A stretch of 64,000 nt of DNA. Origin: Candidatus Cloacimonadales bacterium. GTDB taxonomy: Bacteria > Cloacimonadota > Cloacimonadia > Cloacimonadales > JAIOQZ01. The position numbers and the translations under genes were made by a program. The stretch is taken from positions 2,496,001 through 2,560,000 of the forward strand of contig OY771587.1 in NCBI GenBank assembly GCA_963674825.1, given 5' to 3'. This document shows positions 8,733 to 23,526 of the stretch, piece by piece. The notes under the pieces are model-generated. The model ran no database searches. It worked only from the letters and a program-made list of their open reading frames with translations, and had not been told where the DNA came from. Within the stretch, counting starts at the first letter, position 1; each line of letters opens with the position of its first letter.

Positions 8733-8748
8733 TGGTCGCGTAATTGCT
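8733..8748 (+). promoter_or_regulatory. Degenerate sigma54 (-24/-12) promoter of pilin-like gene 1
   Basis: TGGTCG-CGTAA-TTGCT, 36 nt before the ATG, the same spacing as in copy 2. Confidence 0.5.
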
Positions 8749-8784
8749 TCATAGTTTCGTCAGGAAATAATATAAAGGGATAAT

Positions 8785-9186
8785 ATGGGACAGCAACAGA
8801 TACTTCTTATCGTTATCGGGGTAATCCTGATTGCCGTAGCGGTTGGCGTGGGAGCGCAGCTATTCCGCGATCAGACACTCGATGCGAACCGTGACGATCT
8901 GCGTGCTGATCTCGTGTGGCTTGCCGAAAAAGCCTACAAATATCGCATGATGACATCTGTAATGGGTGGTGGAAGCGGCTCCTATAACAATCTAGTAGAA
9001 GATGACCTTGGGATCGCAGATGCGCTCGATAATGATCACGGTACTTTCGAATTAGTCTCCGTCGATGCTGATGAAGTGGTTCTGCAGGCGACCGGCAAAA
9101 TTGGGGAGACCCCGTGGATCCTCCAGTGTGTGATGGATGGCAGCGGTAATAAAACGATCACGGTTGTTCAAGACGCAGCGTTCTGA
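8785..9186 (+). CDS. Type IV pilin-like protein (MGQQQ family), copy 1
   Basis: MG|QQQILLIVIGVILIAVAVGVG hydrophobic N-terminal helix; 133 aa; paralog of 9405-9806. Confidence 0.75.
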   Translation: MGQQQILLIVIGVILIAVAVGVGAQLFRDQTLDANRDDLRADLVWLAEKAYKYRMMTSVMGGGSGSYNNLVEDDLGIADALDNDHGTFELVSVDADEVVLQATGKIGETPWILQCVMDGSGNKTITVVQDAAF

Positions 9187-9204
9187 TCTTTGACTTCGAA
9201 TATG

Positions 9205-9368
9205 TGTAAGATTTAATATACAGATTGTAAGATATCTGTGACAGATTTTCGGTGTAGCAGATGGCAGGGCCAATTCATCAATGCCAATTTTTACGCCGAT
9301 AATAACGTAACTTGCTGATATGTGGTTGTATATAAATATTCGGCCAATTATTTGGCACAGGCATTGCA
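9205..9368 (+). promoter_or_regulatory. sigma54 promoter with IHF site and upstream activator sequence
   Basis: TGGCAC-AGGCA-TTGCA at 9353-9368; IHF consensus WATCARNNNNTTR on the minus strand at 9308-9320; palindrome ACAGAT-N8-ATCTGT at 9220-9239 plus repeats spaced 21 bp apart. Confidence 0.8.
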
Positions 9369-9404
9369 AAGTAAAATGACAAATCACAAAACAAGGAGAT
9401 TACA

Positions 9405-9806
9405 ATGGGACAACAACAAATTCTGCTCATCGTGCTTAGCGTTATCCTCGTCGGTGTCGCTGTAGCAGTCGGTATTACCATGTTCAGAGACCATGCTCTT
9501 AACTCGAACAAGGATGCGATCATCGCTGACCTTACCAACCTTTCCGCAAAGGTTTACAAGTTCAGAATCACCCCGACCGGCATGGACGGTGGTGGCGGAT
9601 CATACGCTGACCTCGAAGATGGCGACCTCGGTACTGCCGAAGCGCTTGACAACGACAACGCGACCTATGAAATTATCTCCGCAGACGCTGATGAAGTTGT
9701 TCTTCAGGCGACCGGTACTCAGGGTGCTACTCCCTGGATTATCCAGTGCACAATCGACGCAAGCGGAAACAACACATTCACGACGACACAGCAGGCAGCT
9801 TATTAA
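9405..9806 (+). CDS. Type IV pilin-like protein (MGQQQ family), copy 2
   Basis: AAGGAG RBS; MG|QQQILLIVLSVILVGVAVAVG; 133 aa. Confidence 0.8.
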   Translation: MGQQQILLIVLSVILVGVAVAVGITMFRDHALNSNKDAIIADLTNLSAKVYKFRITPTGMDGGGGSYADLEDGDLGTAEALDNDNATYEIISADADEVVLQATGTQGATPWIIQCTIDASGNNTFTTTQQAAY

Positions 9807-9826
9807 TCGTAATGTGACTTGATATT

Positions 9827-9859
9827 AGCGGGGACTGATTGCAGTCCCCGCTTTTTTTT
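9827..9859 (+). terminator. Intrinsic terminator
   Basis: AGCGGGGACTG-attg-CAGTCCCCGCT followed by a T run. Confidence 0.9.
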
Positions 9860-9888
9860 ACCCAAACAGCCATTTACGAATGAGGTCC

Positions 9889-10065
9889 AAACGCGCTCGT
9901 CCAATGGGTGGGTGGGCTGATTCGCTTTCTATGGAAGGGAATTTGCCCGGAATTTCCATTGCTCTCATGCTTGTTGCTGGGAGGGTTTCGGATGAGGCCC
10001 TCGGTATTTTAGCAAATTCCATTACATAGAAAGCGGATCGGGACCGCAATCTCTCGAGCGCGTTT
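9889..10065 (+). ncRNA. Candidate rod-shaped structured ncRNA (6S-like architecture or novel)
   Basis: Nested inverted repeats 9889-9899/10055-10065, 9917-9933/10025-10041, 9938-9946/10012-10020 and hairpin 9981-10002; non-Watson-Crick pairs in the 17-bp stem and apical hairpin are G-U only on the plus strand. Confidence 0.5.
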
Positions 10066-10185
10066 CAACGAATACCTTCAATGTCTCTCATTCAACAAAA
10101 ACAACCTTAATCCATACTCAAGAGCTTTAACTTGCGGAAAGTAATCTTCATGTATAACATGAGATATAAAGTTTTAACTTTTTGC

Positions 10186-10214
10186 TTGACAACTAATTGG
10201 GTTTTCCGTATAGT
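10186..10214 (+). promoter_or_regulatory. sigma70 promoter of the virion operon
   Basis: TTGACA-17nt-TATAGT; palindromes TCATGT-ata-ACATGA and AAAGTT-tt-AACTTT just upstream. Confidence 0.8.
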
Positions 10215-10360
10215 GTTCACGAATATCAAGTGAGTGATCCCGGTGCCATACACCGTAAAAAATGAAGCGTTACAACTTACGATCCGATGAGGATCAACAC
10301 ATCCAAACAAAATCAAACAATTCCAAGCTGACAGAACAGCGACACAAAATGGAGGGAACA

Positions 10361-10927
10361 ATGTCATTACAGGAATTATTCGAGAAGTATTCCGTGGATA
10401 ATCAAGAGCTCATAACCGAAATGCAGGCATTCATCGATCAAGCGCTGACAGACAAAGGTGAGAACCATATCCCGAAATCCCGTCTGGATGAAGTGATCGC
10501 GCAGCGCAACGAGCTTCGTGAGGAACTTCAAATGAAAGAGCGGGAGCTCAATGGTTACGTTAACAGGCTGGGGCAGTTCGAACAGATCGATATCCAGTCG
10601 CTTCAGGAAGAGAAAGCGAAGCTTCAAGCTGTAGTGGACGAAATCCGCCGTAAAGAATGGGAACAGTACAGCCGATTCCTCGATGTTCCAGAAAACCACC
10701 CGCACTATGACAGGATGCTGCGTATTCGCGATGATTTCAAGTTCGGAACCGATACTGAACCGCTCACAGGAGAGGATATCCACCACAATCTGCAGGCAAT
10801 CAAGCCCTATCTCAAAGCAGGATACTTCACGAATGGACACGACTTCGACAACACCCGTCCAGTCCAGGGGATCAAGCCCCGCAAGCGGACGGATCTAACC
10901 GACATGTTCAAGGCATTTGGAGGGTAA
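10361..10927 (+). CDS. Capsid scaffolding protein
   Basis: GGAGG RBS; HIPKSRLDEVIAQRNEL scaffold-type motif and coiled coil; directly upstream of the capsid gene. Confidence 0.75.
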   Translation: MSLQELFEKYSVDNQELITEMQAFIDQALTDKGENHIPKSRLDEVIAQRNELREELQMKERELNGYVNRLGQFEQIDIQSLQEEKAKLQAVVDEIRRKEWEQYSRFLDVPENHPHYDRMLRIRDDFKFGTDTEPLTGEDIHHNLQAIKPYLKAGYFTNGHDFDNTRPVQGIKPRKRTDLTDMFKAFGG

Positions 10928-11887
10928 ATGGCAAGTGCAACACTCATGAAGCTGGCTGCTGCGTATAACGTACCAAACCAGACAGCGATCATCGATTCGC
11001 TCATTCGCGAATCCGGAATTCTGGAAACCATGCCGTTCATCAAGGCGACCCACGGCATATACCACAAGTACAAACTCAAGCAGGAGCTCCCGGGCGGAGG
11101 ATTCCGCAGCGTGAATGGCTCCATAATCCCGCACACTACCGAAGACGTGGTGCTTCAGGAAGATCTCAAGATACTCACCGACATCCAGCAGGAAGACAAA
11201 GCGATCTGTGAGAGCTACCCTGGTGGAGTCGAAAAATACTTCGCTGACGAACTTCCTGCATTCGTAGAGGGACTCGGGCAAACTGCCGCACGCCAACTCG
11301 TATACGGCACCGACTCGACTTTCGGTGACGAAGAGGGCTTCAAGGGCCTCCGTCAGCATGCGGTTAAGAACGGCAACACCATCGACGCCACCGGTACATC
11401 GGGCAACAGAACCACCATCCTGGCAGTTCGCTGGAAAGCTGGAAGCTGCTGCGGTCTGTTCAATGAAAACGCCTTCTCGGATGGCAACCTGATCACCGTA
11501 CGTCCGCTTAACAACGGCAACCCGGTAATGGTTGTGGTCAATACAGCTACCGGCGCAGTCAAGCCTGTCTATCAGGCACTCTACGAAGCGTATATGGGAC
11601 TCCTGTGCGCGACCAGCGACAATGTCGCAGCATACGTCTCCATTCAGGACGCTACAGGCAAGAAGCCGACTGCGGGTAACATGGACAAGCTGATAGACAT
11701 GGTTCGCGGAAGCGTTAGCGATACCTTCATCTACTGCAACCGCACCGGTCGCAGACTGCTTTGGGAACTCAAGGAAAGCAAGATGCAGGTTTCCAGCGCC
11801 GACACAGACTACAACCGCCTGATCGAACGCTGGAACGGAATCCCGGTCGTTCTCGAAGAAAACATCTCATCCACCGAAACCATTTAG
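10928..11887 (+). CDS. Major capsid protein (HK97 fold, BPP-1 Bbp17/epsilon15 gp7-like)
   Basis: IIDSL..ILETMPF..H.Y....LP...FR.VN, LVYG......FKGL, IDATGT....TI....W, FIYCNR, RWNGIPV....IS.TET. Confidence 0.85.
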   Translation: MASATLMKLAAAYNVPNQTAIIDSLIRESGILETMPFIKATHGIYHKYKLKQELPGGGFRSVNGSIIPHTTEDVVLQEDLKILTDIQQEDKAICESYPGGVEKYFADELPAFVEGLGQTAARQLVYGTDSTFGDEEGFKGLRQHAVKNGNTIDATGTSGNRTTILAVRWKAGSCCGLFNENAFSDGNLITVRPLNNGNPVMVVVNTATGAVKPVYQALYEAYMGLLCATSDNVAAYVSIQDATGKKPTAGNMDKLIDMVRGSVSDTFIYCNRTGRRLLWELKESKMQVSSADTDYNRLIERWNGIPVVLEENISSTETI

Positions 11888-11896
11888 GAGTAAACC

Positions 11897-12352
11897 ATGA
11901 GCAAATACTACGGCTATCAGGTAGATGAAAACATGATCCTTTCGGATGCTCAGGCGGTATTCGACGGGACGGGAATGGATTCAAGCAACATCCGCTACGC
12001 AGGCAACAGCGGCGGTTTGGTGGAAATTCGCGTTTATGCGAACACCGCGATCACGATCGCTACAGACGAGATCCTCAAAATCGAACTCGAGTGCTACTCG
12101 TCTCAGACCGCTGCCAGCGCGGCGCCACCGTTCAAAAACAGCGCCAGCGGCTGGGTCGATGACGCCCATTTCTATATGCTGTATAAAGATGCCAGCGATG
12201 ACGGGCTGTCGTTCAGCGCAGGTGACCTCATCACCGCAATGGTGATTCCCGAAGGTCTGCTGCGGGATCGACCTTACGTGCAGCTCAAGTACGCGACCAC
12301 CACCAGCGACTCATCTCAGAAAGTCGACGCGTTCCTGCACGTTCTCGCGTAG
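11897..12352 (+). CDS. Capsid cement/decoration protein (Bbp16-like)
   Basis: N-terminal VDENMILSDAQAV..SSNI and C-terminal IP....RPYVQLKY.....KVDAFL resemble the Bbp16 jelly-roll; follows the capsid gene. Confidence 0.7.
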   Translation: MSKYYGYQVDENMILSDAQAVFDGTGMDSSNIRYAGNSGGLVEIRVYANTAITIATDEILKIELECYSSQTAASAAPPFKNSASGWVDDAHFYMLYKDASDDGLSFSAGDLITAMVIPEGLLRDRPYVQLKYATTTSDSSQKVDAFLHVLA

Positions 12353-12358
12353 CAAATC

Positions 12359-12381
12359 CGGGGAGGGGGAAACCTCTCCCC
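12359..12381 (+). terminator. GC-rich GAAA-loop hairpin after the capsid genes (mRNA stabiliser or weak terminator)
   Basis: GGGGAGGGG-gaaa-CCTCTCCCC, no U-tract. Confidence 0.5.
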
Positions 12382-12406
12382 ATATCTTGATAAAAGGAGA
12401 CATATA

Positions 12407-13144
12407 ATGGCTTGGGCAAATGCTGTGCTTTCAACACCAAATTCAATCGCGCGGATCGACGCTGAGGTGAATATTCTCGCCGGTGGGACCGTTCATCAGT
12501 GCTATAAAGGCGACGGCGCTAGCAGCATCGATTTCCCGGACGAAGTTGCCCGTATCGAGTGGTACGATCCCGATGGCAACGTGACCAGCGTCGACTTGTC
12601 AGTAACCTGGATCGTTCCCGAAGACACATACGTCTTTCGCATCGTGGGCTACGGGATTGACGACACCAGAATTAGCGAATACAATTGCGACGAAGGCGTA
12701 GAATTGGTTGCACTGGATGTCAGCGGAAACGGCTATCATGCAGAGCTTGATTCCACCTCGCTTCACGCGACCTACACAGTTCCTGCCAACTGGCTCGATA
12801 AGATCGCTATGGCGAAGAAGATCATCGGAAGGAGACTGGAAAATCAGCTCTCATCGCAGGGGTATAACGTCGATGAAAGCTCGGGAAAGGCACTACTCGA
12901 TATCGTGGCCAACCCCGAATTGTTCGACATCTGCAGCGACTACCTTACCCTTCACCTGATTTACACCGACCTGGCAAATGCGATGGGACGTGAGATGTAT
13001 TGGACCAAAGCTGAATTCTACCATCGTGTCTTCAAAGACCACTTCGATGTCGCTTCAAAAGCGGTTAATCTGGATACAACGCTCGACGGCGCGGTAGACC
13101 GCTATCGCGCCAATGTTTTCTCGACCACCCGGCACAAACGATAG
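12407..13144 (+). CDS. Putative head-tail adaptor with inserted beta (LamG-like) segment
   Basis: Position after head genes; helical C-terminus ..YLTLHLIY..YWTKAEFY..D...DG..D; insert YNCDEG....LDVSGNGYH. Confidence 0.55.
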   Translation: MAWANAVLSTPNSIARIDAEVNILAGGTVHQCYKGDGASSIDFPDEVARIEWYDPDGNVTSVDLSVTWIVPEDTYVFRIVGYGIDDTRISEYNCDEGVELVALDVSGNGYHAELDSTSLHATYTVPANWLDKIAMAKKIIGRRLENQLSSQGYNVDESSGKALLDIVANPELFDICSDYLTLHLIYTDLANAMGREMYWTKAEFYHRVFKDHFDVASKAVNLDTTLDGAVDRYRANVFSTTRHKR

Positions 13145-13153
13145 GACAACACT

Positions 13154-13606
13154 ATGCACGTATATCAAAATGAAGTACTCAACTGGATGAAAGATACCCT
13201 GAAAAGCGGCGACCAATTCGCATACGTGGGCGATTTCCCGGATGACATCGATCGCTTCGGCAGAAACCTCCCGGCTATCCTGGTTCAAGACGGCGACCAG
13301 CCGGAGTTTGTCATGATGTCAGGCGGACAGATTCGCTACACCTACGAAGTCAACGTCTGGCTTTACCACAAACCGGGGCAGAATCGCGTCATCAACATGA
13401 ATGTTCTGAGCGACCTGGTGATCGAGAAGATCCTCGGTGCGGCTGGCATCGCAGACTATGTTTTCAACCTTGAAACCGTGTCAGTCGAGAAAGGCGAAGC
13501 CCATGGAGAATCGACTGACTACCTGGCCCCGGGAATCTATAACAACCTTACCATTCGGAAGATCGGGTTCAGAATGCAAATCCTCGACACCCGAACCGAT
13601 GACTGA
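13154..13606 (+). CDS. Putative tail terminator/completion protein
   Basis: 150 aa, LPAILV motif, directly upstream of the tail tube. Confidence 0.6.
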   Translation: MHVYQNEVLNWMKDTLKSGDQFAYVGDFPDDIDRFGRNLPAILVQDGDQPEFVMMSGGQIRYTYEVNVWLYHKPGQNRVINMNVLSDLVIEKILGAAGIADYVFNLETVSVEKGEAHGESTDYLAPGIYNNLTIRKIGFRMQILDTRTDD

Positions 13607-13620
13607 CAACTGGAGGACGT

Positions 13621-14577
13621 ATGTGCGCATATCGATATGGATATAAATATCTGGTGACACTGTTCAAGGAGCAGGACTCAGGCACGGGCAGCGGCTACGG
13701 CAACTATGCCGGTGACTACAGCTCAGCCGACAGAATTCTGGCCAGCGCAATCGAGATGAAACCGACACGTGAAGCGATCACCGTTCGCGCCAAGACCGAC
13801 ACCCTGGAGCCACGAGGTTCCGAGATGCTGGCTGGTCGCAAAGGCGGTACAGTTACACTGCGTGGGGAATTGACCTATCTTCACGATATCATGTTGCAGG
13901 GGCTCTTCTCAAAGAACACCTCGCCTTATCAGGTTCAGAATGTGAAGAATCCCTATTCCTATGAAATCCATCAGTTTTTCACCGACGACAAGAAGGGGAA
14001 TGTCGCTACCGGCTGTGTGCTGGAGAGTCTCAACATCTCCGGCGAGAGCAGCGGTGCGGTGAACTTCGAGGCTGTCTTCCGCGCTCGTACCATTGAAACG
14101 GAAGTTGATCTGGCAACCGGCGATTATGCTGCTTACGGAATTATTGCAACGCCTTCCGCGAAGACATTCCTGGTCGGTGATATTCAGTCGATTAACCTGT
14201 TCGACTCCTCATACAGTTCGTTTAACACGTTCAGCCTGGCACTTTCGAATCGTTTTGTGAACGACAACGCATTGTACCAGAATTCCTTCGTTAAGCAACG
14301 TGAGTTGCTCGAGGCGTTCAGCGGCGAAGCGACCTTTGATACCAACTACGATTCCACGAATGGCTGGTTTGAAGACGAACTGATCTCTCCGGATGTGGCG
14401 GTGGGCAATATCGATTTCACCATGTCCGACGGAACGCATCACTGGGCGGTGGAGACCAACGGTAAGATCACCGGCGTCAATCCAGCAGATCCCGAGCGGC
14501 AGATCTTCAACATGTCGGCAACGGTACAATTGATGGCGGATAACACCAATCCGTCAGTCAAGATCACCATCTCGTGA
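13621..14577 (+). CDS. Tail tube protein (non-contractile type)
   Basis: Beta-rich, 318 aa; GR..GTVTL.GEL, ATGCVLESLNISG, FSLALSN; position before the chaperone and tape measure. Confidence 0.7.
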   Translation: MCAYRYGYKYLVTLFKEQDSGTGSGYGNYAGDYSSADRILASAIEMKPTREAITVRAKTDTLEPRGSEMLAGRKGGTVTLRGELTYLHDIMLQGLFSKNTSPYQVQNVKNPYSYEIHQFFTDDKKGNVATGCVLESLNISGESSGAVNFEAVFRARTIETEVDLATGDYAAYGIIATPSAKTFLVGDIQSINLFDSSYSSFNTFSLALSNRFVNDNALYQNSFVKQRELLEAFSGEATFDTNYDSTNGWFEDELISPDVAVGNIDFTMSDGTHHWAVETNGKITGVNPADPERQIFNMSATVQLMADNTNPSVKITIS

Positions 14578-14584
14578 GGACACG

Positions 14585-14986
14585 ATGAGCGATAAAATCA
14601 AGAACTGCTTCGAAGATCATGGCGCGGCGTTGACCCGTGAGGTCTTTTTCGACGGTGAGCGAATCGCAACAATTCGCGCGCTGAGGCCACTCGACCGTGA
14701 CGCGTTGCTTCCGTTCATGGGTAAGCTCAGCTTCAACGGTGAAGAACCTGTCTACGAGGGCATTCAGCCCGAAGCGCTACGCCTGGCAAAGATCGTTCTG
14801 GCGTTGGGCGGAGAGCTCGACGGAAGAAGACACCAGGTGGATCGTGAAGGATGGATATTCGAGCGATCCGTTACACTGGAGAGCGTAAATCTGCTTCGGG
14901 AAGACATCCGGGATGCGCTCTGGCATGAGATTGTCGCGATGGAAGAAGATTTCAGGCAGAACCGCGAGGCGATCCGAAAAAACTGA
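14585..14986 (+). CDS. Tail assembly chaperone (lambda G-like)
   Basis: Lies between tube and tape measure; ends CGA AAA AAC TGA (slippery A AAA AAC). Confidence 0.75.
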   Translation: MSDKIKNCFEDHGAALTREVFFDGERIATIRALRPLDRDALLPFMGKLSFNGEEPVYEGIQPEALRLAKIVLALGGELDGRRHQVDREGWIFERSVTLESVNLLREDIRDALWHEIVAMEEDFRQNREAIRKN

Positions 14987-15330
14987 CACGCGCCCTCCGG
15001 TTGATGATCTATTCGGGTGATCGCTGGGAGGGCATGATTCAAGGGTATGCGGGTGAGAGAACATTCTGCGGTTATTGCCGGATGCATCGGACGTGCAGAA
15101 GGGAGCGCGCCGGAAATCCGTTTCCGAAGGTTTTACCGGGAGTGCGGATGGTGCTGGATTACCTGATTGAAAACGCCCGTGGCGTGGTGCACTATCCCTG
15201 GGATGGCGATCACCGCCGGCAACCACAGTGGTTTATGGAACTCTACGCACTCGCGGAGAGATTGCAGCGAGAAACGATGACAGAGAAGCTTCAACGGGGG
15301 CAAAATGAAACGAAACACAACATGGGATAA
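14983..15330 (+). CDS. Tail assembly chaperone extension (lambda T-like), expressed by -1 frameshift
   Basis: The -1 frame is open from the slippery site; YPWDG...QPQWF motif. Confidence 0.7.
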   Translation: MTRALRLMIYSGDRWEGMIQGYAGERTFCGYCRMHRTCRRERAGNPFPKVLPGVRMVLDYLIENARGVVHYPWDGDHRRQPQWFMELYALAERLQRETMTEKLQRGQNETKHNMG

Positions 15331-16390
15331 CCAGACGTTCACCGATGCGAATCGTAACGTCAGTACGCTCAATGGCGCGCTGGGCAATACCGATCAGCTT
15401 CTGAAAACCCTTCAGAAGACAATCGATTCGGCGCGAAGCTCGATGGATTCCTTCGGTAGCTCGTCGCGAAAAATGCTGCCCGGGAAATCGGCGATGGCGA
15501 CCTTGCGCGAAAACCACCAGCAAAATCTGGATTGGATGCACGAAGAAGCCAGAACCCGCGAAGAACTCGATTTGAGCGCGATGGAGAGCCAGAAACAGCA
15601 ACAGCAGGTGATGCTTGATACCTTGCGTAACTCGCTGGATCTGAGCTCCGATATGCAGTATTCGGAGTATCTGAAGTTGCAGGAAATGGCGATCGAGCAC
15701 CAGAGCGCCAGCACCGCCATCATGGAATATTACACCAAGGAGCGCAACGACATTCGCCAGAAGGAGCTCAAGCGAGAGTTGGCACGTCAGAAAGAGCTAC
15801 TTTCCGGTACAGCGGATATGTTTGGCGATATGGCCGACATCGCCCGGGCATACGGGCGAGACGGATTCGAGGCGTGGAAACGGCTCTCGATGGTACAAGC
15901 GGTTTTGGATGGCTTGCAAGCCGTGCAGTCCGCATACGCCTGGGGAATGAAATACGGTGGCGCGGCAGCTCCGTTCGTGGCAGCAGCTGCGGCTGCTGTG
16001 GCGACAGCCAAGACAGCGGCAAACGTCGCGGAGATAGAGGCCCAAACATACGCTTATGGTGGCTATGTGTCAGGCCCCGGTAGCGGGACATCCGATTCGA
16101 TTCCGGCTTTCTTGAGCAACGGTGAGTACGTGGTTAACGCGCAAGCGGCAAGCGGGAATCTCGATCTGCTGCACGCGATCAACCACGGCAGCACTGGCAG
16201 CCTCGGAGAAAAGCTCGACCGGATATCATCACAGCTTCGTGCGCTCAACATCAACCTGATCAAGAAAGAATTCAGCGTCCGTACAGGCAGCGGTCGCGAC
16301 AGCGAAACCATTGTCGCGCAAATCGATGCGGTCAGGCAACGACTCACCCTTGGAGGCTACGATGGCTCAGGTGAAAATCTGGCATTATAG
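15305..16390 (+). CDS. Short tape measure protein (361 aa)
   Basis: Coiled-coil, Ala-rich hydrophobic segment, YAYGGYVSGPGSGTSDSIPAFLSNGEYVVNA motif typical of tape measure C-termini. Confidence 0.85.
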   Translation: MKRNTTWDNQTFTDANRNVSTLNGALGNTDQLLKTLQKTIDSARSSMDSFGSSSRKMLPGKSAMATLRENHQQNLDWMHEEARTREELDLSAMESQKQQQQVMLDTLRNSLDLSSDMQYSEYLKLQEMAIEHQSASTAIMEYYTKERNDIRQKELKRELARQKELLSGTADMFGDMADIARAYGRDGFEAWKRLSMVQAVLDGLQAVQSAYAWGMKYGGAAAPFVAAAAAAVATAKTAANVAEIEAQTYAYGGYVSGPGSGTSDSIPAFLSNGEYVVNAQAASGNLDLLHAINHGSTGSLGEKLDRISSQLRALNINLIKKEFSVRTGSGRDSETIVAQIDAVRQRLTLGGYDGSGENLAL

Positions 16391-18134
16391 AGACCACCAC
16401 AACGGCGCGAAGTTTGATGGCAATGTCTATGTCAATAGCAACGTCGCGCTTGATGCAGCCGATCTCATCACGCCGGTTCGGTGCCGATTTCGCTTTGCCG
16501 AGTTCGGGATGGGTGTCAGCGTGAAAAGCGTGTGGGGTGTTGGCAACGGAGACGATGCCTGGTCGCTGAAAGTATATTCGACGGGTGGAAAGTATCATCT
16601 GCGTATCCGCTTTCTGGATACGGATTACGATTATACGGATTTGGACCTTAACACCGACGAGATCTACAATGTGAGTATCTATCTGATTGCGACACCGGCA
16701 ATCGTTCTGGATGTACGCGACCGGTACAATAATCCTGTTTACAGCGAAACGCGTGCATCTACATCGTCAGGTACGCTGACAACATCGAATTTGTTTATTG
16801 GCGCGACCAGCGACAGCTCCGGCAATCCGCAGCAGAAGTTCACGGGTACACTGTTCGATTTCTGGTACTACAAGTCTTCAACGCACCGTAAGTTGGTGTT
16901 TTACAAGAACTACGGCGGAGTTGGCGACGCCACGATCAAGGATTTCTTTGGAAACAGGAACGCGGCTGTCTGTGGGACAATTCCAATCGATTTCTGGTCT
17001 GCAAAGACGGATATCTCCGGGGGTATCACCGATATCTCGCCGCTCAAGCACGAGACGGACAGCTATCGCACGCCGGTTCTCACGGATATGTCGTTTACCT
17101 GGTACGGCGAGCAGGACATCCGAATCAACGACACCATCGGAATCGAGGATCCAGTCTCCGGTAAGCAGAACTGGTTTTACCGTGTCTATCGAACCGAGGA
17201 GCAGGATCAAGGATTGATGCGGATCTACTGTGAGAGCATCTTCACCGCGCTCGATCAGGTTCGTTCTGATAGTTTTCTGAACAGCACCAATACATTCACC
17301 ACCACGCGTATCGACTGGTGGAGCAACTACTCTCCGGAATTCTTTACGGGCTCGAATTACGATTCAACAGAATACTATTACGATGCTGGAGTGAGCTCAC
17401 GAAGATGGATTACTCCGATCTTTATCTTCAAGAGCGTGCTGCATTTTCTGCAATACGACAACCTCCTTGCCGTTGACGTAACACAGATTGCAAACACGCT
17501 GTCGGACTTCAGCGATTCCGCATACACGCTCTACTACAAGTGGTTTGCTATTAGCCACTACTCTGTGCGCTTCGCAGGACGGGCAAACAAGGACGACAAT
17601 GACAGCGCCGATATGTCGACGCTACTGCGGGAACTGCTTCTCGTGCTACGGCTGACGTTCTTCATCAATGATGCTGTGGTGACCTATCGTAAGGTGAGTT
17701 ATGGAACAACCGCAATCGCAAACGACGAAAGTTTCGATTACCGGCAGAACATCGAGACGCAGAGAAAGTTCTTCCAGATCAATCAGACTCGGCTGGCAAC
17801 AGGGACGGATTATTGGGATAGCTGGACATCGGACGACTCTGAGGAAATCTCAGTCAGCAATATCAGTAGCTCCTACAAGGTACGGAATTCCGTCATCGAT
17901 GTGAACCTGACAGATCACTTCATCATCCAACGTCACGGTAGCACCAGTAATGCGATTGCGGAGATTGTACCATCGTTTTTAGAGCAGTTGGCCAATACGA
18001 TGGATTGTTCGTTTCGACGCGATATCGCTTACCGCAACGTGAAGACAGGCCTCACTGTAGATATGAACGAAACCTACGTCAGAAAAATCGACGACCTTGT
18101 GAACCAGACATCAGAAATCAAGCAGGAGGTTTGA
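16362..18134 (+). CDS. Tail tip/hub protein with N-terminal LamG-like domain
   Basis: GGAGG RBS; LFIGA......KFTGTLFDFWYY LamG-like motif; follows the tape measure. Confidence 0.55.
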   Translation: MAQVKIWHYRDHHNGAKFDGNVYVNSNVALDAADLITPVRCRFRFAEFGMGVSVKSVWGVGNGDDAWSLKVYSTGGKYHLRIRFLDTDYDYTDLDLNTDEIYNVSIYLIATPAIVLDVRDRYNNPVYSETRASTSSGTLTTSNLFIGATSDSSGNPQQKFTGTLFDFWYYKSSTHRKLVFYKNYGGVGDATIKDFFGNRNAAVCGTIPIDFWSAKTDISGGITDISPLKHETDSYRTPVLTDMSFTWYGEQDIRINDTIGIEDPVSGKQNWFYRVYRTEEQDQGLMRIYCESIFTALDQVRSDSFLNSTNTFTTTRIDWWSNYSPEFFTGSNYDSTEYYYDAGVSSRRWITPIFIFKSVLHFLQYDNLLAVDVTQIANTLSDFSDSAYTLYYKWFAISHYSVRFAGRANKDDNDSADMSTLLRELLLVLRLTFFINDAVVTYRKVSYGTTAIANDESFDYRQNIETQRKFFQINQTRLATGTDYWDSWTSDDSEEISVSNISSSYKVRNSVIDVNLTDHFIIQRHGSTSNAIAEIVPSFLEQLANTMDCSFRRDIAYRNVKTGLTVDMNETYVRKIDDLVNQTSEIKQEV

Positions 18135-18168
18135 CGGATGAAACGCTATCCGGGAGAAGGAGGATTCT

Positions 18169-18618
18169 ATGGCATATTGGGGTAACGAAGCTCCCGTCAT
18201 ATACTACGGGACAGCGTATGGTTCCAGCTGGGACCTCGCTGAAGAAGACTGCAACTTCGAATATTCATGGTTGAAAGACCGGGTATTTCACACATCGGTG
18301 ATCACGGGTAAGGTCTCGGTTTATGAGAAGGCATCCAGTGCTAATTACGGCAGGATGCAGGCCGAGATCGTCATCTACAACCTCGATCGCGACTCAATGA
18401 ACATCTTTAAAGCATTACGGGATCAGGAGACGCTCAAGCTGTGTATCCACGGGGACGTAACCGGTACCAACGGATGGGATGTAATCTTCGTTGTGGAAAA
18501 ATACCAATCGTTCGCAACAGGTGAAAGTGGCCTTCCGTATCCACAATACGACAGCGTCTATCTCAAGTTGATCAGTCAGGACTATATAGATCTGAAAAAT
18601 ATCGCGTTAACCACTTGA
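18169..18618 (+). CDS. Putative distal tail protein
   Basis: AGGAGG RBS; 149 aa beta-rich; position in the tail module. Confidence 0.45.
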   Translation: MAYWGNEAPVIYYGTAYGSSWDLAEEDCNFEYSWLKDRVFHTSVITGKVSVYEKASSANYGRMQAEIVIYNLDRDSMNIFKALRDQETLKLCIHGDVTGTNGWDVIFVVEKYQSFATGESGLPYPQYDSVYLKLISQDYIDLKNIALTT

Positions 18619-18647
18619 TATCAATCATAAAAAAAGCAGGAGGGAAC

Positions 18648-18902
18648 ATGGACCGAATTGAAAAGAGTATGCGAATGGTGCCGGAGGATTTCGACATCAT
18701 CAGCGATACTTCCACGCATACCGGAGACTGGTATGCAATCCAGAGCTATAACGCATCGTTTCCGTCTTCCGGTAACACCGTGGGCGGAGCGGACAAGGAT
18801 CTCTCGTCGCTTAATGGCGAGCTTCCTTACGGCGACATCACCTACGGTCACTTCACGCAGATCAGACTCAGCGGCGGGAAGATCAAAGCCTACAAGGGTT
18901 GA
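18648..18902 (+). CDS. Small virion protein
   Basis: AGGAGGG RBS; C-terminus ITYGHFTQIRLSGGKIKAY. Confidence 0.55.
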   Translation: MDRIEKSMRMVPEDFDIISDTSTHTGDWYAIQSYNASFPSSGNTVGGADKDLSSLNGELPYGDITYGHFTQIRLSGGKIKAYKG

Positions 18903-18905
18903 GCC

Positions 18906-19805
18906 ATGCGTAACGTAGCAATCAACATCCTCACCGATTCTCCGCCCGAGCCGATGGTTGTCATCAAGGCATTCATCACGAATTTCGCCAGCCAGACAGT
19001 GACGATAACCATTCGTGGTATCAGCGGGGCATCATCGAGGATCGACTGGGGCGACGGATGCGCAACCGAATGCAGCCACAACGATCTGGATATCGAATAT
19101 ACGCATACCTATGCCGACAACGGTACATTCACGATCAATATCACAGGTAAACTAAATCTTATCAAGCGCTTCTACGCGTACAACCAGAGCTATATCGGCG
19201 TCAAGATCGAGACGCTCCGCTTTATGAAATCGGTTGATAATCTGTATTGCCATTACACGGCCAGCTACGGCGACATTTCGGTAGGACTGGCTCCCCTGAA
19301 ATCGCTCAAGATTCTCTATCTGAAGCAGACGAATCCTGATAATATCTACGGCGATCTCTCGGTGTTCAATGGTAAGACGTCGACCCTTATTATCGATCTC
19401 AGCGGTAATATCAGGCTGACCGGATCGCTCTCAAACTTCTCGGGACTGGCCGGCATGACGAAGTTGTCTTGCTCGGGAGTGAAGGTCGATGGCGAAATAT
19501 CGGATCTTGCCGATAAACCGCTCGAACTTCTGAGGCTGGACAATACGGGCATTACCGGCTACACCTCAACCGCTCTCTCCTGGAATGTGATCCAGGCGAA
19601 TTTCGACAACCTGTACGGTCTGACAACTCACGAAATCTCGCAGATACTTGTGGATGTGGAAGCTATCGGTAACAGCGGCGGTTCGCTCGATTTCGGTGGG
19701 TGCGGAACCGGATATTCCGACCTCGACTTGGATGGACAGACTGCACACGATATCCTTCTTTCCAGAAGCTGGGATATTACTCTGGATTCTGCGGAGGTAT
19801 TATGA
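18906..19805 (+). CDS. PKD-like plus leucine-rich-repeat protein, candidate receptor-binding/fiber protein
   Basis: IDWGDG..HTYADNGTFTINI (PKD-like); repeated GDIS.L..L..L..L.L....I.G units. Confidence 0.65.
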   Translation: MRNVAINILTDSPPEPMVVIKAFITNFASQTVTITIRGISGASSRIDWGDGCATECSHNDLDIEYTHTYADNGTFTINITGKLNLIKRFYAYNQSYIGVKIETLRFMKSVDNLYCHYTASYGDISVGLAPLKSLKILYLKQTNPDNIYGDLSVFNGKTSTLIIDLSGNIRLTGSLSNFSGLAGMTKLSCSGVKVDGEISDLADKPLELLRLDNTGITGYTSTALSWNVIQANFDNLYGLTTHEISQILVDVEAIGNSGGSLDFGGCGTGYSDLDLDGQTAHDILLSRSWDITLDSAEVL

Positions 19806-19996
19806 CTGAACTGACACTGCGCTACAGGCTGATCTGGGAAGGGTCAACCAATGTGGTCCGCTGTTGCAAAGAGTTCAATAACGGAACCGTCACTCGCACC
19901 AATCATCCGTGTTTCGAGACCGATACTGCGTCGGAGATCGCAAGCTGGGTCGAACAGGAGAACCTGATCGTACCTGATACGATACAACTTCCATAG
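19802..19996 (+). CDS. Small protein (64 aa), possible fiber chaperone
   Basis: GGAGG RBS; ATGA overlap with the upstream gene. Confidence 0.6.
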   Translation: MTELTLRYRLIWEGSTNVVRCCKEFNNGTVTRTNHPCFETDTASEIASWVEQENLIVPDTIQLP

Positions 19997-20017
19997 GGTG
20001 TTCAACAGGAGGGCAAT

Positions 20018-20194
20018 ATGGATTGGAAAGTCATACTAAGACATGTAATGAACGTGCTGCCGGTCAAGGTGATCGTCGATGCGTTTATTGACTGGCTCGA
20101 TGAAATGGCGGAAAAGACCGAAAACAAACTCGACGACCACTCAGTTGAAGTCCTGCAACTGATTCTCTACAACGCGTTCGGATGGGCTCGCTGA
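20018..20194 (+). CDS. 58-aa amphipathic peptide, lysis-cassette associated
   Basis: AGGAGG RBS; MDWKVILRHVMNVLPVKVIVDAFIDWLDEMAEKTENKLDDHSVEVLQLILYNAFGWAR; below the ORF-track cutoff. Confidence 0.75.
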   Translation: MDWKVILRHVMNVLPVKVIVDAFIDWLDEMAEKTENKLDDHSVEVLQLILYNAFGWAR

Positions 20195-20619
20195 TGTCGT
20201 CAAACAGACATTCTCCCCTTTCATCTGAAAGGGGAGTCTTTTTATCGGAAGAAGGCTGGTGTGCGATCAACTTCTTCGTGCGGGAGGAGTTTCTATGTCG
20301 GTGTTGCGGTGAGGAAAGGATTGCTCGGGAACTTGTCTTGAAGCTCGATGATGCACGGCGTATTGCCGGGATTCCCATGATCGTCAATTCGGGATATCGT
20401 TGCCCGAAGCACAACCGGGAAGTCGACGGCTTCGCCACGTCGAGTCATCTCAGGGGCTATGCGGCCGATATATCAACGCCGGATCATCAAACGCGGTTCA
20501 AGATCGTCCGTGCGCTAGTTCTTGCTGGTTTCCAGCGCATTATCATCTACCGGGACAAACGGTTTGTACACGTCGATGTCGATCCCGAAAAACCACAGAA
20601 TATTATGCCGATCGTCTAA
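20194..20619 (+). CDS. Peptidase M15A-family Zn endolysin
   Basis: EEFLCRCCG, NSGYRCPKHN, SSHLRGYAADI, FVHVD. Start uncertain (ATG 20194 coupled by TGATG, or GTG 20278). Confidence 0.85.
   Translation: MSSNRHSPLSSERGVFLSEEGWCAINFFVREEFLCRCCGEERIARELVLKLDDARRIAGIPMIVNSGYRCPKHNREVDGFATSSHLRGYAADISTPDHQTRFKIVRALVLAGFQRIIIYRDKRFVHVDVDPEKPQNIMPIV
20213..20244 (+). terminator. Intrinsic-terminator-like hairpin at the 5' end of the lysin gene
   Basis: CTCCCCTTTCA-tc-TGAAAGGGGAG followed by TCTTTTT. Confidence 0.65.
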
Positions 20620-21422
20620 TTGACAGGCAGAAATCCGGTATCTTTAACGATTGCCTGGCCACGCTCGGAAAGGACGAAGCGGACGAAATCGCCGATATGA
20701 CCTCGCGGTTTTCCGTTGGTGTACATGTATAGCTTTCTGGAAAGGGCGTATTCTCCTGAAGATATGGTTTGACTTGAAGGCTCAACTTTTTCTATCGAGA
20801 GAGCTTTCAGGTGGCTTTGCAGGAAACCGATGCCGATATAACCGATAGCGGATTCGGTCATAGCCACAGCATCCGCGACCGATTGATTGCCCTGAACCAG
20901 GATGGCTGTAAGGGTCAGTTCTTCGTCTTTCAGCACGATGTGATTGAACACCTCAAAAGTGCCAGACGAGGGGTCGCGCGAGATAACCAGGATGGGTTTA
21001 TCTGCTCCACCAACTTCCTTCCACGAGGTGATCTTCCCTGTGTAGATATCCTTGAGCTGCTGGAGAGATAAGGTGTTTACTTTGTTGTTGGGATGCACGA
21101 CTACTGCGACACCATCCAGCGCGACCACGGTTCCGTGGAGGTCGATCCCTTTGCTTCTGGCTTTATCGATCTCTATTTTCTTTGCTGCTCGGGAGGCGTT
21201 CCCAACATCCGTTGTTCCATCGATAATGGATGATATTCCCACGCTCGAGCCGGTGGAAGCAAGTTCGATCTCCACGCCTGGATTCTCATCCTCGAAAATC
21301 TGAGCGCACTTTTCGGTAATGGGAAAGACAGTTGTTGAGCCGGTTATATTAATCAGATCGGCTGCAACAAGAGTCGAACCGAGTATAGCGAGTATCGCGA
21401 GACAGAATAACTTCTGATACAT
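20616..21422 (-). CDS. pstS: Phosphate ABC transporter substrate-binding protein
   Basis: GSTTVFP, GSSVGI, ASR, VALDG, SRDPSSGT, LSRKLYMY. Confidence 0.9.
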   Translation of the reverse strand: MYQKLFCLAILAILGSTLVAADLINITGSTTVFPITEKCAQIFEDENPGVEIELASTGSSVGISSIIDGTTDVGNASRAAKKIEIDKARSKGIDLHGTVVALDGVAVVVHPNNKVNTLSLQQLKDIYTGKITSWKEVGGADKPILVISRDPSSGTFEVFNHIVLKDEELTLTAILVQGNQSVADAVAMTESAIGYIGIGFLQSHLKALSIEKVEPSSQTISSGEYALSRKLYMYTNGKPRGHIGDFVRFVLSERGQAIVKDTGFLPVN

Positions 21423-21507
21423 GATCACCTCCGGGCCACTATTTGTATGACCTTTACGGGCAGGATGTTATTTGAGGATAATGATTTGAATAAAGACGCA
21501 TGAACCA

Positions 21508-23526
21508 TCAGACGCTTTCGTCTTCTTCCTCGAATGGATCCGCGTTTGCGCAGCCGAGTTTGACCATCGACGTTCCTTCCGTGTAGTCGCCGTATTGCAC
21601 CCGGTCGAGCTTTTCAATGTGCTCCATGATCCCCATAATTCGTTCAAGCGAGGTTTGAATACGGAAAACGAATCGAAGTTGATCGTCGTCTGCGTCACGT
21701 TTTTCGATATTGATACGCAGCATGTCCAGGTTCCCCTGAATGATCATCAATGGCTGATTGATTTCGTGATTCATGGTTACCGCCATTGCGGACATCGATT
21801 TGAGCCGCTCGAATTCGATAAGCTCTTGCTGCGCTTTTTCGAGCTGTCCGTAAGCGTCGGTGAGCGCTTCATGCTGTTCGCTGATCTTCATGTGTAGGCT
21901 TCGTTCGCGCCGTAACCGCGCGATAATATACCAAAGAAAAACGATCGCGCCGATCACCAGCAGTGCCATGGAGATCATCACGACCCGCTGATTGCGCGAT
22001 TTCAAGTTTTCTAGCTCCAACTGTGTTTCGTAGTAGAATTTATCGTGTTCAGCCTGTAAACGCTGCGCCGCCAGGTTGTTTTCCAGTTTCTCGATCTCTT
22101 TTTCCTTCTGAAAGCTCTCGAAAAGGATTTCCATCTCGGCCAGCTTCTGGTGTGAAAGATCGTCGTAGAGCTTATCCTGGAGGTTCATCGCCTGACGGTA
22201 ATGGGTGATAGCACTGTGAATGTTGCCCTGCTTCTCTTTCAATTCGGCGATGCTCTTCTCGATCTGAAGCTGATATTCCTTGTTGCCGCCACCTTCACGC
22301 AATACCACTGACGCCTCGCTAAGTGCAGAGATGGCTTCTGTGCTGTTTCCGGCCATGGCCTGAACGTCGCTGAGGTCGATCAGAAGTGCGGTGAGGAGTC
22401 GTGTGAGGCCTTTATCTTTCGCGATCTCAATCGATTTCTGGCTGTAGCGGATTGCGTCCTGAAATTCTCCTGATTCTGCCAGCGAAAGTCCGATCTTGCT
22501 ATTAGAAAGCGCCATACCTTCAAAGTTCTCGACCTTTGTGTAGGTCGAAAGCGCTTTTTTGAAGTACGTCAGGGCTGTATTGTCCTGCTTAAGATCGTTA
22601 TAGAGTAGGCCGAGATTCATGTAGTTGTCGCCCACATTCGCCCAGTTTTGCAGGCTGATATTCAGTATCTGCGCGTTGGTCATGTATTCGATTGCTTTAG
22701 GGATCTCGCCCAACTTCCGGTAGATAGTGGCCACGCGATCATAGACCACAGCCAGCATATCCTTTCTGTTAGCTTTGGAAAAACTGTCGATCGCCTCGAA
22801 GTACGCTGCCAGCGCTAAATCGAATTCTCCTTTACGCTGATGCGCGTTACCGACATTGATTGCCAGTTCCGCCGAAAGCAGTGGATCGTCGAGTTCCTGC
22901 GAGAGGATGTACGCTTTATCGTAGTATTCCAAGCTGTTGATGATCATCCCCTGGCGGTCGAAATATTGTCCCAACTGCCGGTACGCGCGAATCATAAGCG
23001 TGCGATCGGAGAGGGCGTTGATCTCCAGCACGGCTTCCATTGCCTCGCGAGAAGCAGCACGCATCAGGTTCTGCTGTTCGAAGAAAGTGGCGATTTCAAG
23101 GTGCAGGACAGCGATGAAATGCGAGGGGAGGGTCAATTTGGCATGCTTGATGGCATTTCGATAGAGCTTCTGGGCTTCTTCCTGATCACCGGCTTTGTTT
23201 TCCAACCGCGCGAGTTCCCATTCCGCGAAGGCCTCGGCAGAGTGCATATCGTGCCTTCGGCTGAGTTCCAGCGCTTTGCGGATATAGCGCGTAACCGCTT
23301 TGCTGTCGATGCCGGCGACATTGCTGCTGAGAAGCAAGTAGCTGACTCTGCGCTGTACTGGCAAAGGGCTGTCCTCGTTGATTGCGTCGAGTAGTTCAGA
23401 TTTCCAGCTGACCGGATCGCTCCGAACCGAATCGGCAAGTTCAAGATAGTCGTCAAGCCAGGCTCCGAAGAGCAGATTTCCAATCAAAAAGAGAAGACCG
23501 ATAAGCGACAGCCTCTTTATGATCAT
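21508..23526 (-). CDS. Exported TPR domain + TM + HisKA/DHp protein lacking HATPase domain
   Basis: Signal peptide, TPR repeats, TM helix, H-box TMNHEINQPL, then stop after ~80 aa. Confidence 0.8.
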   Translation of the reverse strand: MIIKRLSLIGLLFLIGNLLFGAWLDDYLELADSVRSDPVSWKSELLDAINEDSPLPVQRRVSYLLLSSNVAGIDSKAVTRYIRKALELSRRHDMHSAEAFAEWELARLENKAGDQEEAQKLYRNAIKHAKLTLPSHFIAVLHLEIATFFEQQNLMRAASREAMEAVLEINALSDRTLMIRAYRQLGQYFDRQGMIINSLEYYDKAYILSQELDDPLLSAELAINVGNAHQRKGEFDLALAAYFEAIDSFSKANRKDMLAVVYDRVATIYRKLGEIPKAIEYMTNAQILNISLQNWANVGDNYMNLGLLYNDLKQDNTALTYFKKALSTYTKVENFEGMALSNSKIGLSLAESGEFQDAIRYSQKSIEIAKDKGLTRLLTALLIDLSDVQAMAGNSTEAISALSEASVVLREGGGNKEYQLQIEKSIAELKEKQGNIHSAITHYRQAMNLQDKLYDDLSHQKLAEMEILFESFQKEKEIEKLENNLAAQRLQAEHDKFYYETQLELENLKSRNQRVVMISMALLVIGAIVFLWYIIARLRRERSLHMKISEQHEALTDAYGQLEKAQQELIEFERLKSMSAMAVTMNHEINQPLMIIQGNLDMLRINIEKRDADDDQLRFVFRIQTSLERIMGIMEHIEKLDRVQYGDYTEGTSMVKLGCANADPFEEEDESV

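Follow-up and report, generated by a model that had tools for sequence, protein, structure and literature searches.

Siphovirus-like particle genes at two chromosomal loci of a Cloacimonadales bacterium: a candidate gene transfer agent with a displaced packaging module

We analysed a 64,000-nt stretch of DNA (hereafter the window; contig OY771587.1 of GenBank assembly GCA_963674825.1, positions 2,496,001 to 2,560,000) from a Candidatus Cloacimonadales bacterium, in which a first-pass annotation had pointed to a cluster of phage-like head, tail and lysin genes as a possible domesticated particle system akin to a gene transfer agent (GTA). The genome holding the window, G000, is a single 3.89-Mb contig (C1), 99.6% complete. 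It was compared with eight related genomes, among them its congeners G001, G002 and G003, G004 and G007 of genus g2, and G011 of family f5. The cluster occupies positions 10262-20619 and comprises 15 open reading frames (ORFs; g1 to g15), all on the + strand and read in one direction, with -80 to +54 nt between neighbours and a single wider interval of 212 nt between g13 and g14. Families were assigned by Pfam and PHROG scans of the cluster ORFs and their flanks (Table 1), in which 9 of the 16 submitted ORFs found no match in either library. The layout first described, 15 co-oriented ORFs running from a promoter to a 4-bp overlap with pstS, was borne out by the ORF list, by a promoter matching 11 of 12 consensus positions and by the PF12849 match of the pstS-like gene.

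The first genes of the cluster are those of a phage head and neck. Ratios of nonsynonymous to synonymous substitution (dN/dS) quoted for them and below are Nei-Gojobori values for G000 against its three congeners; dS ranges from ~0.4 to >3 (median >1) and is near saturation, so that the values are rough, but their direction is not in doubt. The frame of g1 is open from 10262, and the ATG at 10361, preceded by GGAGG at 10351-10355, is probably its start. g1 is homologous (29% identity) to the ORF between the portal region and the capsid gene of L042, a 38-kb siphovirus-like contig from IMG/VR, and has a dN/dS of 0.10-0.19. On a 602-nt contig of depth 5.6, from another sample of the same study, position 10295 is joined to 10870, skipping 574 nt of g1 (10296-10869). 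The capsid gene g2 has a dN/dS of 0.034-0.048. An ortholog of g3 follows the capsid gene in all eight relatives and in phage L042; g3 is 95-96% identical in G003 and G002 and 75% identical in G001 (dN/dS 0.07-0.09). For g5, L042 carries a homolog at the same position, and dN/dS is 0.046-0.060.

The g4 product was modelled with AlphaFold2 (AF2) from a 70-row alignment (g4 plus 69 homologs; 120 homologs at E <= 0.001), giving a mean predicted local distance difference test score (pLDDT) of 94.9. In a wide VIA-align search its top matches were phage neck or adaptor chains (P74-26, Z 9.5; Mu, Z 8.4; HK97 gp6, Z 5.5), and most of the top 30 rows were neck or portal-tail complexes. By the fold of this model, g4 is a predicted neck adaptor. 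The adaptor fold came from that search only: Foldseek with the full model returned no match at E <= 0.001, there was no usable Atlas match, and a Pfam scan of the 70 alignment rows revealed no common family. Sequence-profile searches of g3, g4, g5, g11 and the portal described below against solved structures gave nothing usable, and the predicted complex of portal and g4 scored 0.00.

The tail genes follow. The PF18906 match of g6 (E 7e-4, 19.7 bits) lies below the family's cut-off of 27; the gene immediately precedes the chaperone pair and shares 33% identity with its positional counterpart in L042. In g7 the slippery heptamer is in X_XXY_YYZ phase just ahead of the stop. The ORF annotated as g8 begins at 15001; its -1 frame overlaps the end of g7, and orthologs occur in all eight relatives. 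Seven of these relatives (all but G011), and L042 as well, have a heptamer in this phase no more than 60 nt from the g7 stop. The phase of the heptamer and the open -1 frame support the view that g7 and g8 form a G/GT chaperone pair. The tape measure, described from the start as short, is 317-361 aa long in all family copies (361 aa here) versus 899 aa at the same position in L042. The start of g10 was corrected to the ATG at 16362; among Atlas clusters it comes closest to Laminin_G_3-containing viral proteins, no more than a lead, and it has orthologs in six relatives with a dN/dS of 0.085-0.12. Orthologs of g11 are likewise present in six relatives, at 41-83% identity. The most variable gene of the cluster is g13, which combines a PKD-like N-terminus with a leucine-rich-repeat-like C-terminus; it is 44-45% identical where the capsid is 95% identical, and its dN/dS of 0.21-0.29 is the highest. 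The small g14 overlaps the start of the peptidase gene and is not an obvious holin.

Of the gene labels in the first-pass annotation, capsid, tape measure and M15 lysin are thus upheld by families, adaptor by fold and chaperone by the heptamer; tube and scaffold have weak matches, and cement, terminator, tip, adhesin and peptide were positional guesses. To call the head complete was too strong, the portal not being in the cluster.

Table 1. Positions of the cluster genes, their control and boundary elements, and the separate packaging genes (window coordinates unless another locus is named)
Feature	Position	Strand	Basis
Terminator-like hairpin	9827..9852	+	11-pair stem, 8 GC pairs, then T run
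Sigma-70-type promoter, TTGACA-17-TATAGT	10186..10214	+	11/12 consensus positions
5' leader with two palindromes or hairpins	10215..10360	+	Alignment of 8 genomes
g1, scaffolding-like	10361..10927	+	Weak PF06810 and phrog_194 matches (E 0.004-0.008, below cut-off)
g2, major capsid protein, GP7 family	10928..11887	+	PF20911 E 1e-23; phrog_212 E 4e-24
g3, head or neck protein	11897..12352	+	No Pfam, PHROG or PDB match
g4, head-to-tail adaptor with inserted beta-sandwich domain	12407..13144	+	AF2 model, fold match
g5, neck or tail-completion protein	13154..13606	+	Position only; no Pfam, PHROG or PDB match
g6, major tail (tube) protein	13621..14577	+	Weak: phrog_290 E 3.8e-7
g7, tail assembly chaperone, G-like	14585..14986	+	Slippery heptamer A_AAA_AAC at 14977-14983
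g8, -1 frame extension, T-like part of G-T fusion	14929..15330	+	Frame open from 14929
g9, short tape measure, 361 aa	15305..16390	+	15 PHROG families, 10 annotated tape measure, best E 2.5e-17
g10, distal tail or baseplate protein, 590 aa	16362..18134	+	Position after tape measure
g11, conserved tail-tip protein	18169..18618	+	No Pfam, PHROG or PDB match
g12, small accessory tail protein	18615..18902	+	Orthologs only in G003, G002 and G006
g13, candidate receptor-binding protein	18906..19805	+	Weak PF00801 and PF12799 matches
g14, 58-aa protein	20018..20194	+	phrog_402 (uncharacterised family) E 5.7e-5
g15, M15 peptidoglycan peptidase (lysis or entry)	20182..20619	+	PF08291 E 4.5e-19; phrog_894 E 1.8e-29
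pstS-like host gene, right boundary	20616..21428	-	PF12849 E 2.3e-45
TerS-like protein, 143 aa	Ahead of TerL, 4-bp overlap		phrog_309 E 8e-15
TerL	C1:188477-189709		PF03237 E 2.4e-12; PF17289 E 2e-8; phrog_2 E 1e-39
Portal, 457-aa ORF	After TerL		phrog_533 E 7e-7 (weak) and fold
Non-orthologous TerS/TerL	L016:13894-15631 (G007) vs L025:9550-11213 (G000)

The cluster is closely bounded by host genes. On the left, the hairpin closes the upstream host gene (pilin-like paralog 2) and marks the limit of host transcription; on the right, the g15 stop and pstS are convergent and share 4 bp, a junction that is the same in G003 and G001. The junction near 10.1 kb recurs in two other species and is crossed by one 22.8-kb read-derived contig, ruling out the misjoin that had been considered there. 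As had been claimed, the Pfam and PHROG scans of the cluster ORFs and flanks gave no match to portal, terminase, integrase, repressor or replication families, and a repeat search found no direct repeat bracketing the cluster. No tRNA adjoins it, the closest lying at 4658-4734, and an Rfam search over 8600-21500 gave nothing relevant, with a single sub-threshold L20-leader match at 9755-9865. An intact temperate prophage is ruled out by this lack of integrase, repressor, replication family, bracketing repeat and adjacent tRNA.

The missing packaging genes were located elsewhere in the chromosome. A whole-genome search revealed a TerS-TerL-portal module at C1:188049-191274, outside the window and, if the 3.89-Mb chromosome is circular as assumed, at least 1.56 Mb from the head-tail operon. 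The search for an orphan terminase and portal proposed at the outset thus succeeded. In G001 ~380 kb separate the two loci, and in G003 they lie on different contigs. The AF2 model of the portal (21 homologs) has a pLDDT of 81, and its top Foldseek matches were all phage portals (Douge, 80alpha, SaPI1, Bxb1, T7 and SPP1; best E 7e-14). The module lies between dnaX and a glycosyltransferase gene on one side and a 285-aa ORF (u285) and a MORN-repeat protein gene on the other, and Pfam and PHROG scans found no integrase, replication or regulator gene near it. In all aligned bacterial copies TerL retains Walker A, Walker B, the TPEG motif and the three aspartates of the nuclease domain.

Evidence that both loci belong to one system came from L042, which with L043 represents an uncultured siphovirus-like element in IMG/VR. 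Its genes run in the order TerS, TerL, portal, one ORF, scaffold, capsid, g3, g4, g5, tube and g8, with the same internal order as in G000 and with identities of 33% (TerL), 28% (portal), 29% (scaffold) and 44% (capsid). When all L042 ORFs were compared with the G000 genome, matches fell at 189-191 kb for TerL and portal and at 2506-2511 kb for scaffold to g8; the three remaining ones were weak, came from the tape measure and the next tail ORF, and led to other prophage-like regions. L042 is the only phage-like relative found for the module genes, and there they stand directly upstream of the scaffold and capsid genes, the contig having additional ORFs in the neck region and in the portal-scaffold interval. 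Compared with it, the bacterial copies are reduced, rearranged and chromosomally fixed. The close homologs in complete prophages that had been held possible were not seen, this phage-like contig, with 44% identity in the capsid, being the closest.

The same genes are found together in the sister genus g2. A single 12.5-kb block of G007 and G004, placed between an amino-acid permease gene and a TPR gene, contains the head-tail genes together with three small ORFs, a possible TerS, TerL and portal, and no integrase, replication or lysogeny gene was found in the block by Pfam and PHROG scans. The G007 portal is orthologous to that of G000 (53% identity) and matches the SPP1-type portal family. 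Taken together, the L042 gene order and the contiguous block in genus g2 indicate that the two loci of G000 share one ancestry.

We next consider how the system is distributed and inherited. A capsid profile detected it in 8/8 species genomes of the family (G000 counted), in 1/1 of family f5 and in 1/194 elsewhere in the order, ruling out a strain-specific element. The cluster capsid is single-copy and syntenic within the genus. The portal profile matched 6/8 family genomes, and in G011 only a piece cut by a contig end. G003 has the operon site amt-pilin-pilin-cluster-pstS, of which G001 retains the pstS side and G002 the amt side. For the module, the flank portal-u285-MORN is kept in G001 and G003, and a MORN gene adjoins it in G006. 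A capsid-only tree was unresolved (long outgroup branches), and a concatenated tree of seven element proteins was used instead. This tree recovered the genus, G004+G007 and G002+G003 with high support and showed no supported conflict with the DnaX tree or with taxonomy, its deeper nodes being unresolved. The one genome with matches outside families f1 and f5 is G119 of family f3 (contigs C138, C30 and C23; capsid E 3e-64, portal E 4e-93). It is the only one of 24 genomes in its genus with a related capsid and portal, its matches lie on small contigs, and what it carries is probably a genuine phage or prophage of ancestral type.

Selection on the system was readily detected. dN/dS is 0.03-0.29 for 15/15 cluster genes and 0.06-0.11 for TerS, TerL and portal; for eleven flanking host genes it is 0.035-0.15. 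No stop codon was found inside ortholog matches in the eight relatives, and frames are full length except at contig ends. The capsid is more conserved than DnaX, with 89-95% versus 81-82% identity within the genus and 65-78% versus 51-57% between genera. GC content at third codon positions (GC3) is 0.58-0.74 for the particle genes (genome 0.60 +/- 0.07) and their codon index is 0.68-0.83 (genome 0.76 +/- 0.045); their composition is host-like. A multi-copy prophage portal of the same genome has a GC3 of 0.85, 3.5 standard deviations above the host range. These comparisons indicate that all 18 genes, the packaging motor included, are under purifying selection, and the relaxed selection that would be expected of a decaying element is ruled out by the dN/dS values.

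The same data bear on whether the two loci are the inert remains of a prophage that lost its early genes, was split by rearrangement and is now drifting. Missing lysogeny and replication genes and a split cluster are what such a history would leave, and the 574-nt deletion in g1 on one low-depth contig and the variation of accessory genes between lineages would suit it as well. Against this, 18/18 genes are open wherever found despite a synonymous divergence of ~1 or more, with dN/dS like that of host genes. The capsid persists in 8/8 family species, across genera whose DnaX proteins are 51-57% identical, and both the frameshift site and the TerL motifs are kept. We consider an inert remnant very unlikely. 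The cleanly deleted prophage offered as one of the original options is disfavoured likewise, since the TerL motifs are kept under purifying selection. Conservation, synteny, dN/dS and trees, the checks first proposed, came out in favour of domestication.

The genome also contains phage-like loci of a different kind. Two paralogous modules lie at C1:2870500-2890499 (L026) and C1:1004000-1023999 (L027); both hold an M15 peptidase, a PF04860 portal, an XkdF protease-capsid fusion, a Dam methylase and an 887-aa tape measure, the protease-capsid-like fusion being 578 aa in L026 and cut to 151 aa in L027. Their portals are 95% identical to each other and 94-97% identical to copies in G001 and G003, where DnaX is 81-82% identical, and the PF04860 portal occurs patchily, in up to three full copies per genome. 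These modules look like recently mobile phage, and the pattern of the particle cluster is the opposite of theirs. About 14 kb from the L026 portal, a further locus (L075, C1:2893403-2896798) encodes a minor head protein and another TerS-TerL pair, of 153 and 514 aa.

Such elements raise the question of whether the system is still mobile or dependent on a helper, its loci supplying virion parts to, or borrowing them from, the elements at ~1.01 and 2.88 Mb or an L042-type phage. Potential partners are at hand in these other loci, which have a different portal family, 94-97% identity across species and up to three full copies per genome. The second TerS and TerL, the helix-turn-helix (HTH)-like segment of the first TerS and the contact with phages implied by TerS/TerL exchange in genus g2 (see below) would also fit. 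The cluster itself, in contrast, is single-copy, stands at conserved host junctions and has a host-like composition; Pfam and PHROG scans show no integrase, replication or regulator gene around either locus, and the other elements own a portal, a protease-capsid fusion, a tape measure and a peptidase. A mobile or helper-dependent system is on this evidence very unlikely.

The region upstream of g1 may hold the control elements. The promoter at 10186-10214 is the best of 23 promoter-like sites in 8600-21600, and its -35 element CTTGACA is invariant upstream of g1 in 8/8 aligned genomes. In the leader, a first palindrome, CGGTGNCATNCACCG, lies at 10241-10255 and is followed by TAAAAAATGA (leaders of three genera); a second, GCTGACANNNCAGCG, lies at 10327-10341 just ahead of the ribosome-binding site. 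CGGTGNCATNCACCG is found upstream of g1 in six of the eight aligned genomes (three genera) and occurs twice in the whole G000 genome. The leader, 10215-10360, is thus a candidate control region. Its stems show no covariation and match no Rfam family; lacking covariation, the palindromes could be either protein-binding sites on DNA or RNA hairpins. terS has a promoter of its own, CTTGACA-N17-TACATT, conserved in the genus. The leader palindromes are absent from the terS locus, and the two promoters share no convincing regulatory motif beyond the consensus CTTGACA -35 element and AT-rich upstream DNA.

To determine the class to which the system belongs, we compared it with known particles. Tailocins are ruled out by the conserved genes for capsid, scaffold, adaptor, portal and terminase. 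Capsid-forming phage satellites (cf-PICI type) have integrase and replication genes together with their own capsid and packaging genes, and no tail genes; here tail genes are present and the Pfam and PHROG scans found no integrase or replication gene, which rules out this class too. PBSX is a contiguous defective prophage of ~28 kb with a repressor and a contractile tail. As generally described, it resembles the present system in being chromosomally fixed and defective, with head, tail, terminase and lysis genes and no self-propagation, and it packages host DNA. The present system differs in its siphovirus-type tail and its two loci. Among the cluster ORFs, Pfam and PHROG scans found no sheath, other contractile-tail family or repressor, and the tape measure and G/GT chaperone denote a non-contractile tail; a PBSX-like defective prophage is thereby excluded.

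RcGTA has TerS, TerL and portal in its main cluster. The GP7 capsid, the Terminase_6-type TerL, the SPP1-type portal (G007) and a scaffold in place of a protease suggest an ancestor other than that of RcGTA. In the accessible part of PMC11841831, GTAs are typically described as sets of packaging and structural genes only, lacking replication genes and divided among several loci with hundreds of kb between them. The system described here resembles those known (RcGTA, BaGTA, VSH-1, Dd1, VTA, CcGTA and FpGTA, as far as covered in the available portions of PMC11841831 and PMC12946183) in possessing packaging and structural genes only, at several distant loci. It resembles GTAs as a class, so far as the same sources describe them, in its conservation under purifying selection in a host clade, its short tape measure and its ~13.5 kb of genes. 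It differs from known GTAs in its new host lineage, in a GP7-type capsid with scaffold and no protease gene in the cluster, in a Terminase_6-type TerL, in the displacement of the whole TerS-TerL-portal module and in a TerS with an HTH-like N-terminus, and it is known here from genes alone.

Three properties of GTAs can be followed in these data. Virion structure and packaging genes are all that Pfam and PHROG detected at both loci and in G007. As to self-transfer, the genes are dispersed in G000, G001 and G003 and contiguous over 12.5 kb in genus g2. Maintenance by the host is seen in the 8/8 capsid distribution, the conserved junctions, the dN/dS range given above and the lack of internal stops. 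We conclude, with a probability of roughly 0.6, that the cluster and module form a siphovirus-like particle system that has been domesticated and is not self-transmissible, most likely a GTA with its own origin in Cloacimonadales. Of the original options, that of a new GTA with its packaging genes at another site is, so far as sequence goes, in agreement with the findings, the unlinked TerS-TerL-portal module having been found.

A domesticated particle could instead have another job: it might kill, like PBSX or a phage-like bacteriocin, serve as a decoy or act against phages, the host then selecting for its effect on other cells and any packaged DNA being incidental. The evidence of conservation and selection fits such a particle equally well. 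The rapid change of g13 and the turnover of g12-g15 would suit the targeting of changing cell surfaces, and an M15 peptidase stands at the tail end of the operon; the behaviour of g12-g15 is, however, compatible with either a GTA or a particle with another job. TerS, TerL and portal, on the other hand, are under selection as strong as that on the capsid (0.06-0.11) with catalytic motifs intact, which would be difficult to account for in a particle indifferent to packaging; this point is tempered by the fact that PBSX also packages DNA. No sheath or contractile-tail family was matched, and no toxin or immunity gene was recognised in the cluster or its flanks by Pfam or PHROG. We regard another job as unlikely, though sequence by itself does not separate it from a GTA. 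The non-packaging particle originally suggested is disfavoured, since TerL motifs are kept under purifying selection; the wider idea of a decoy or phage-interference particle stands, fitting the conservation data equally.

Several observations weigh against the GTA interpretation. The TerL of genus g2 is 22% identical to that of G000, and the small ORFs in TerS position there are without similarity. Since G006 and G011 keep the G000-type TerL, this divergence indicates that TerS and TerL were replaced in genus g2 by exchange with phages. Neither TerL nor portal was detected in G002 (90% complete) or G005 (81%, 460 contigs). G002 also lacks the MORN gene, a host gene flanking the module in its congeners, which makes an assembly gap as likely there as loss. 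g12 and g13 are missing in G001, where g11 abuts g14 (L014), and g12-g15 were not found in G007 and G004, where three other small ORFs follow g11. No holin was recognised among the cluster ORFs by PHROG scan or by inspection of the sequences. The 574-nt gap reflects either a strain in which g1 is broken or an error of assembly.

Two further points of this kind concern the terminase. The TerS alignment shows an HTH-like segment at residues 20-50, and the TerS profile gave weak matches to HTH proteins only (Aca7, E 0.011; Xre regulator, E 0.23). Known GTAs tend to have a TerS without a DNA-binding domain (PMC11841831, in its accessible part), so that packaging here could be site-specific. In addition, the genome has a second TerL (phrog_38 E 7.5e-62, ~2.895 Mb), which rules out the 188-kb TerL as its only one. 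Because of this second TerL, the pairing of the 188-kb TerL with the cluster rests on homology and synteny and not on uniqueness. Five Pfam terminase models gave no other TerL above cut-off; PF17289 had a weak match at 2.895 Mb, which PHROG shows to be the second TerL. The PF17289 whole-genome search missed the known 188-kb TerL too, and blanks of such searches are thus no proof of absence.

If the system is a GTA, particle production, packaged content and transfer may be pictured as follows. A host signal would activate the promoter and leader ahead of g1, together with the similar promoter that precedes terS. Procapsids would be built from scaffold, capsid and portal, and TerS and TerL would cut DNA and pump it in, probably by headful. 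A short non-contractile tail, expected to be ~50 nm long at 0.15 nm per residue of the 361-aa tape measure and assembled with it and the frameshifted chaperone, would be joined via the g4 adaptor and neck proteins; the variable g13 would contact target cells, and the M15 peptidase would aid release or entry. Since its ~13.5 kb of genes are spread over two distant sites and include none for replication, integration or lysogeny, the element would not be self-propagating, and its cargo would be host DNA, as in GTAs. The system may stem from an L042-type siphovirus that was domesticated once, long ago, in the ancestor of the family and perhaps of f5 too, and that then lost all early genes and had its tail shortened. 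Separation of the packaging module from the head-tail operon would have come later, in the lineage to genera g1 and g4.

A more specific version, which we hold to be quite unlikely, is that of an independent, bona fide Cloacimonadales GTA, the first in its phylum, whose layout changed after domestication (contiguous in one genus, split in others) and whose packaging may start at a fixed site near terS. Successive headfuls of the adjoining host region would then be moved, a built-in, host-owned lateral transduction in place of random packaging. A fixed start near terS is suggested by the HTH-like segment of TerS and by the host flank on the portal side (u285, MORN and neighbours), which stays linked across genera.

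Some neighbouring genes were recorded in passing. Between amt and the cluster lie two paralogous 133-aa ORFs (8785-9186 and 9405-9806), both beginning with MGQQQILL and having a hydrophobic N-terminus, without a Pfam or PHROG match. They adjoin the cluster in G003 and G002 and were not found in a 20-kb stretch around the G001 cluster. A CHAP-domain protein (23809-24360; PF05257 E 1e-9) is encoded 3 kb downstream of the cluster and at the same place in G003; in G002 its gene directly abuts the M15 gene, and pstS and the TPR kinase are absent there.

No report joining Cloacimon* with a gene transfer agent was found in the literature searched, and in the parts of it that were accessible no such element was described among Cloacimon* prophages (supplements outside scope in both cases). 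The GTA lineages listed in the available portion of PMC12946183 include none in this phylum. What is new here is an independently derived candidate GTA, whose unusual point is the displacement of the entire TerS-TerL-portal module. So far as the accessible parts of PMC11841831 and PMC12946183 tell, few GTAs are known, nearly all by experiment in cultivated bacteria, and a GTA is hard to tell from a dead prophage by sequence. Family-wide occurrence, conserved junctions, selection, composition and the contrast between contiguous and split layouts together provide about as full a comparative case as genes by themselves allow. Control and packaging specificity may be approached through the conserved promoter and leader and the TerS with its HTH-like segment. 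The phylum is largely uncultivated and can be abundant in anaerobic digesters; Ca. Cloacimonetes made up ~20% of the community in one digester study (PMC9377139, as far as accessible). If the particles are active, they would provide a route of gene exchange in digester communities, and an independent domestication event in which to study how phages become host organelles.

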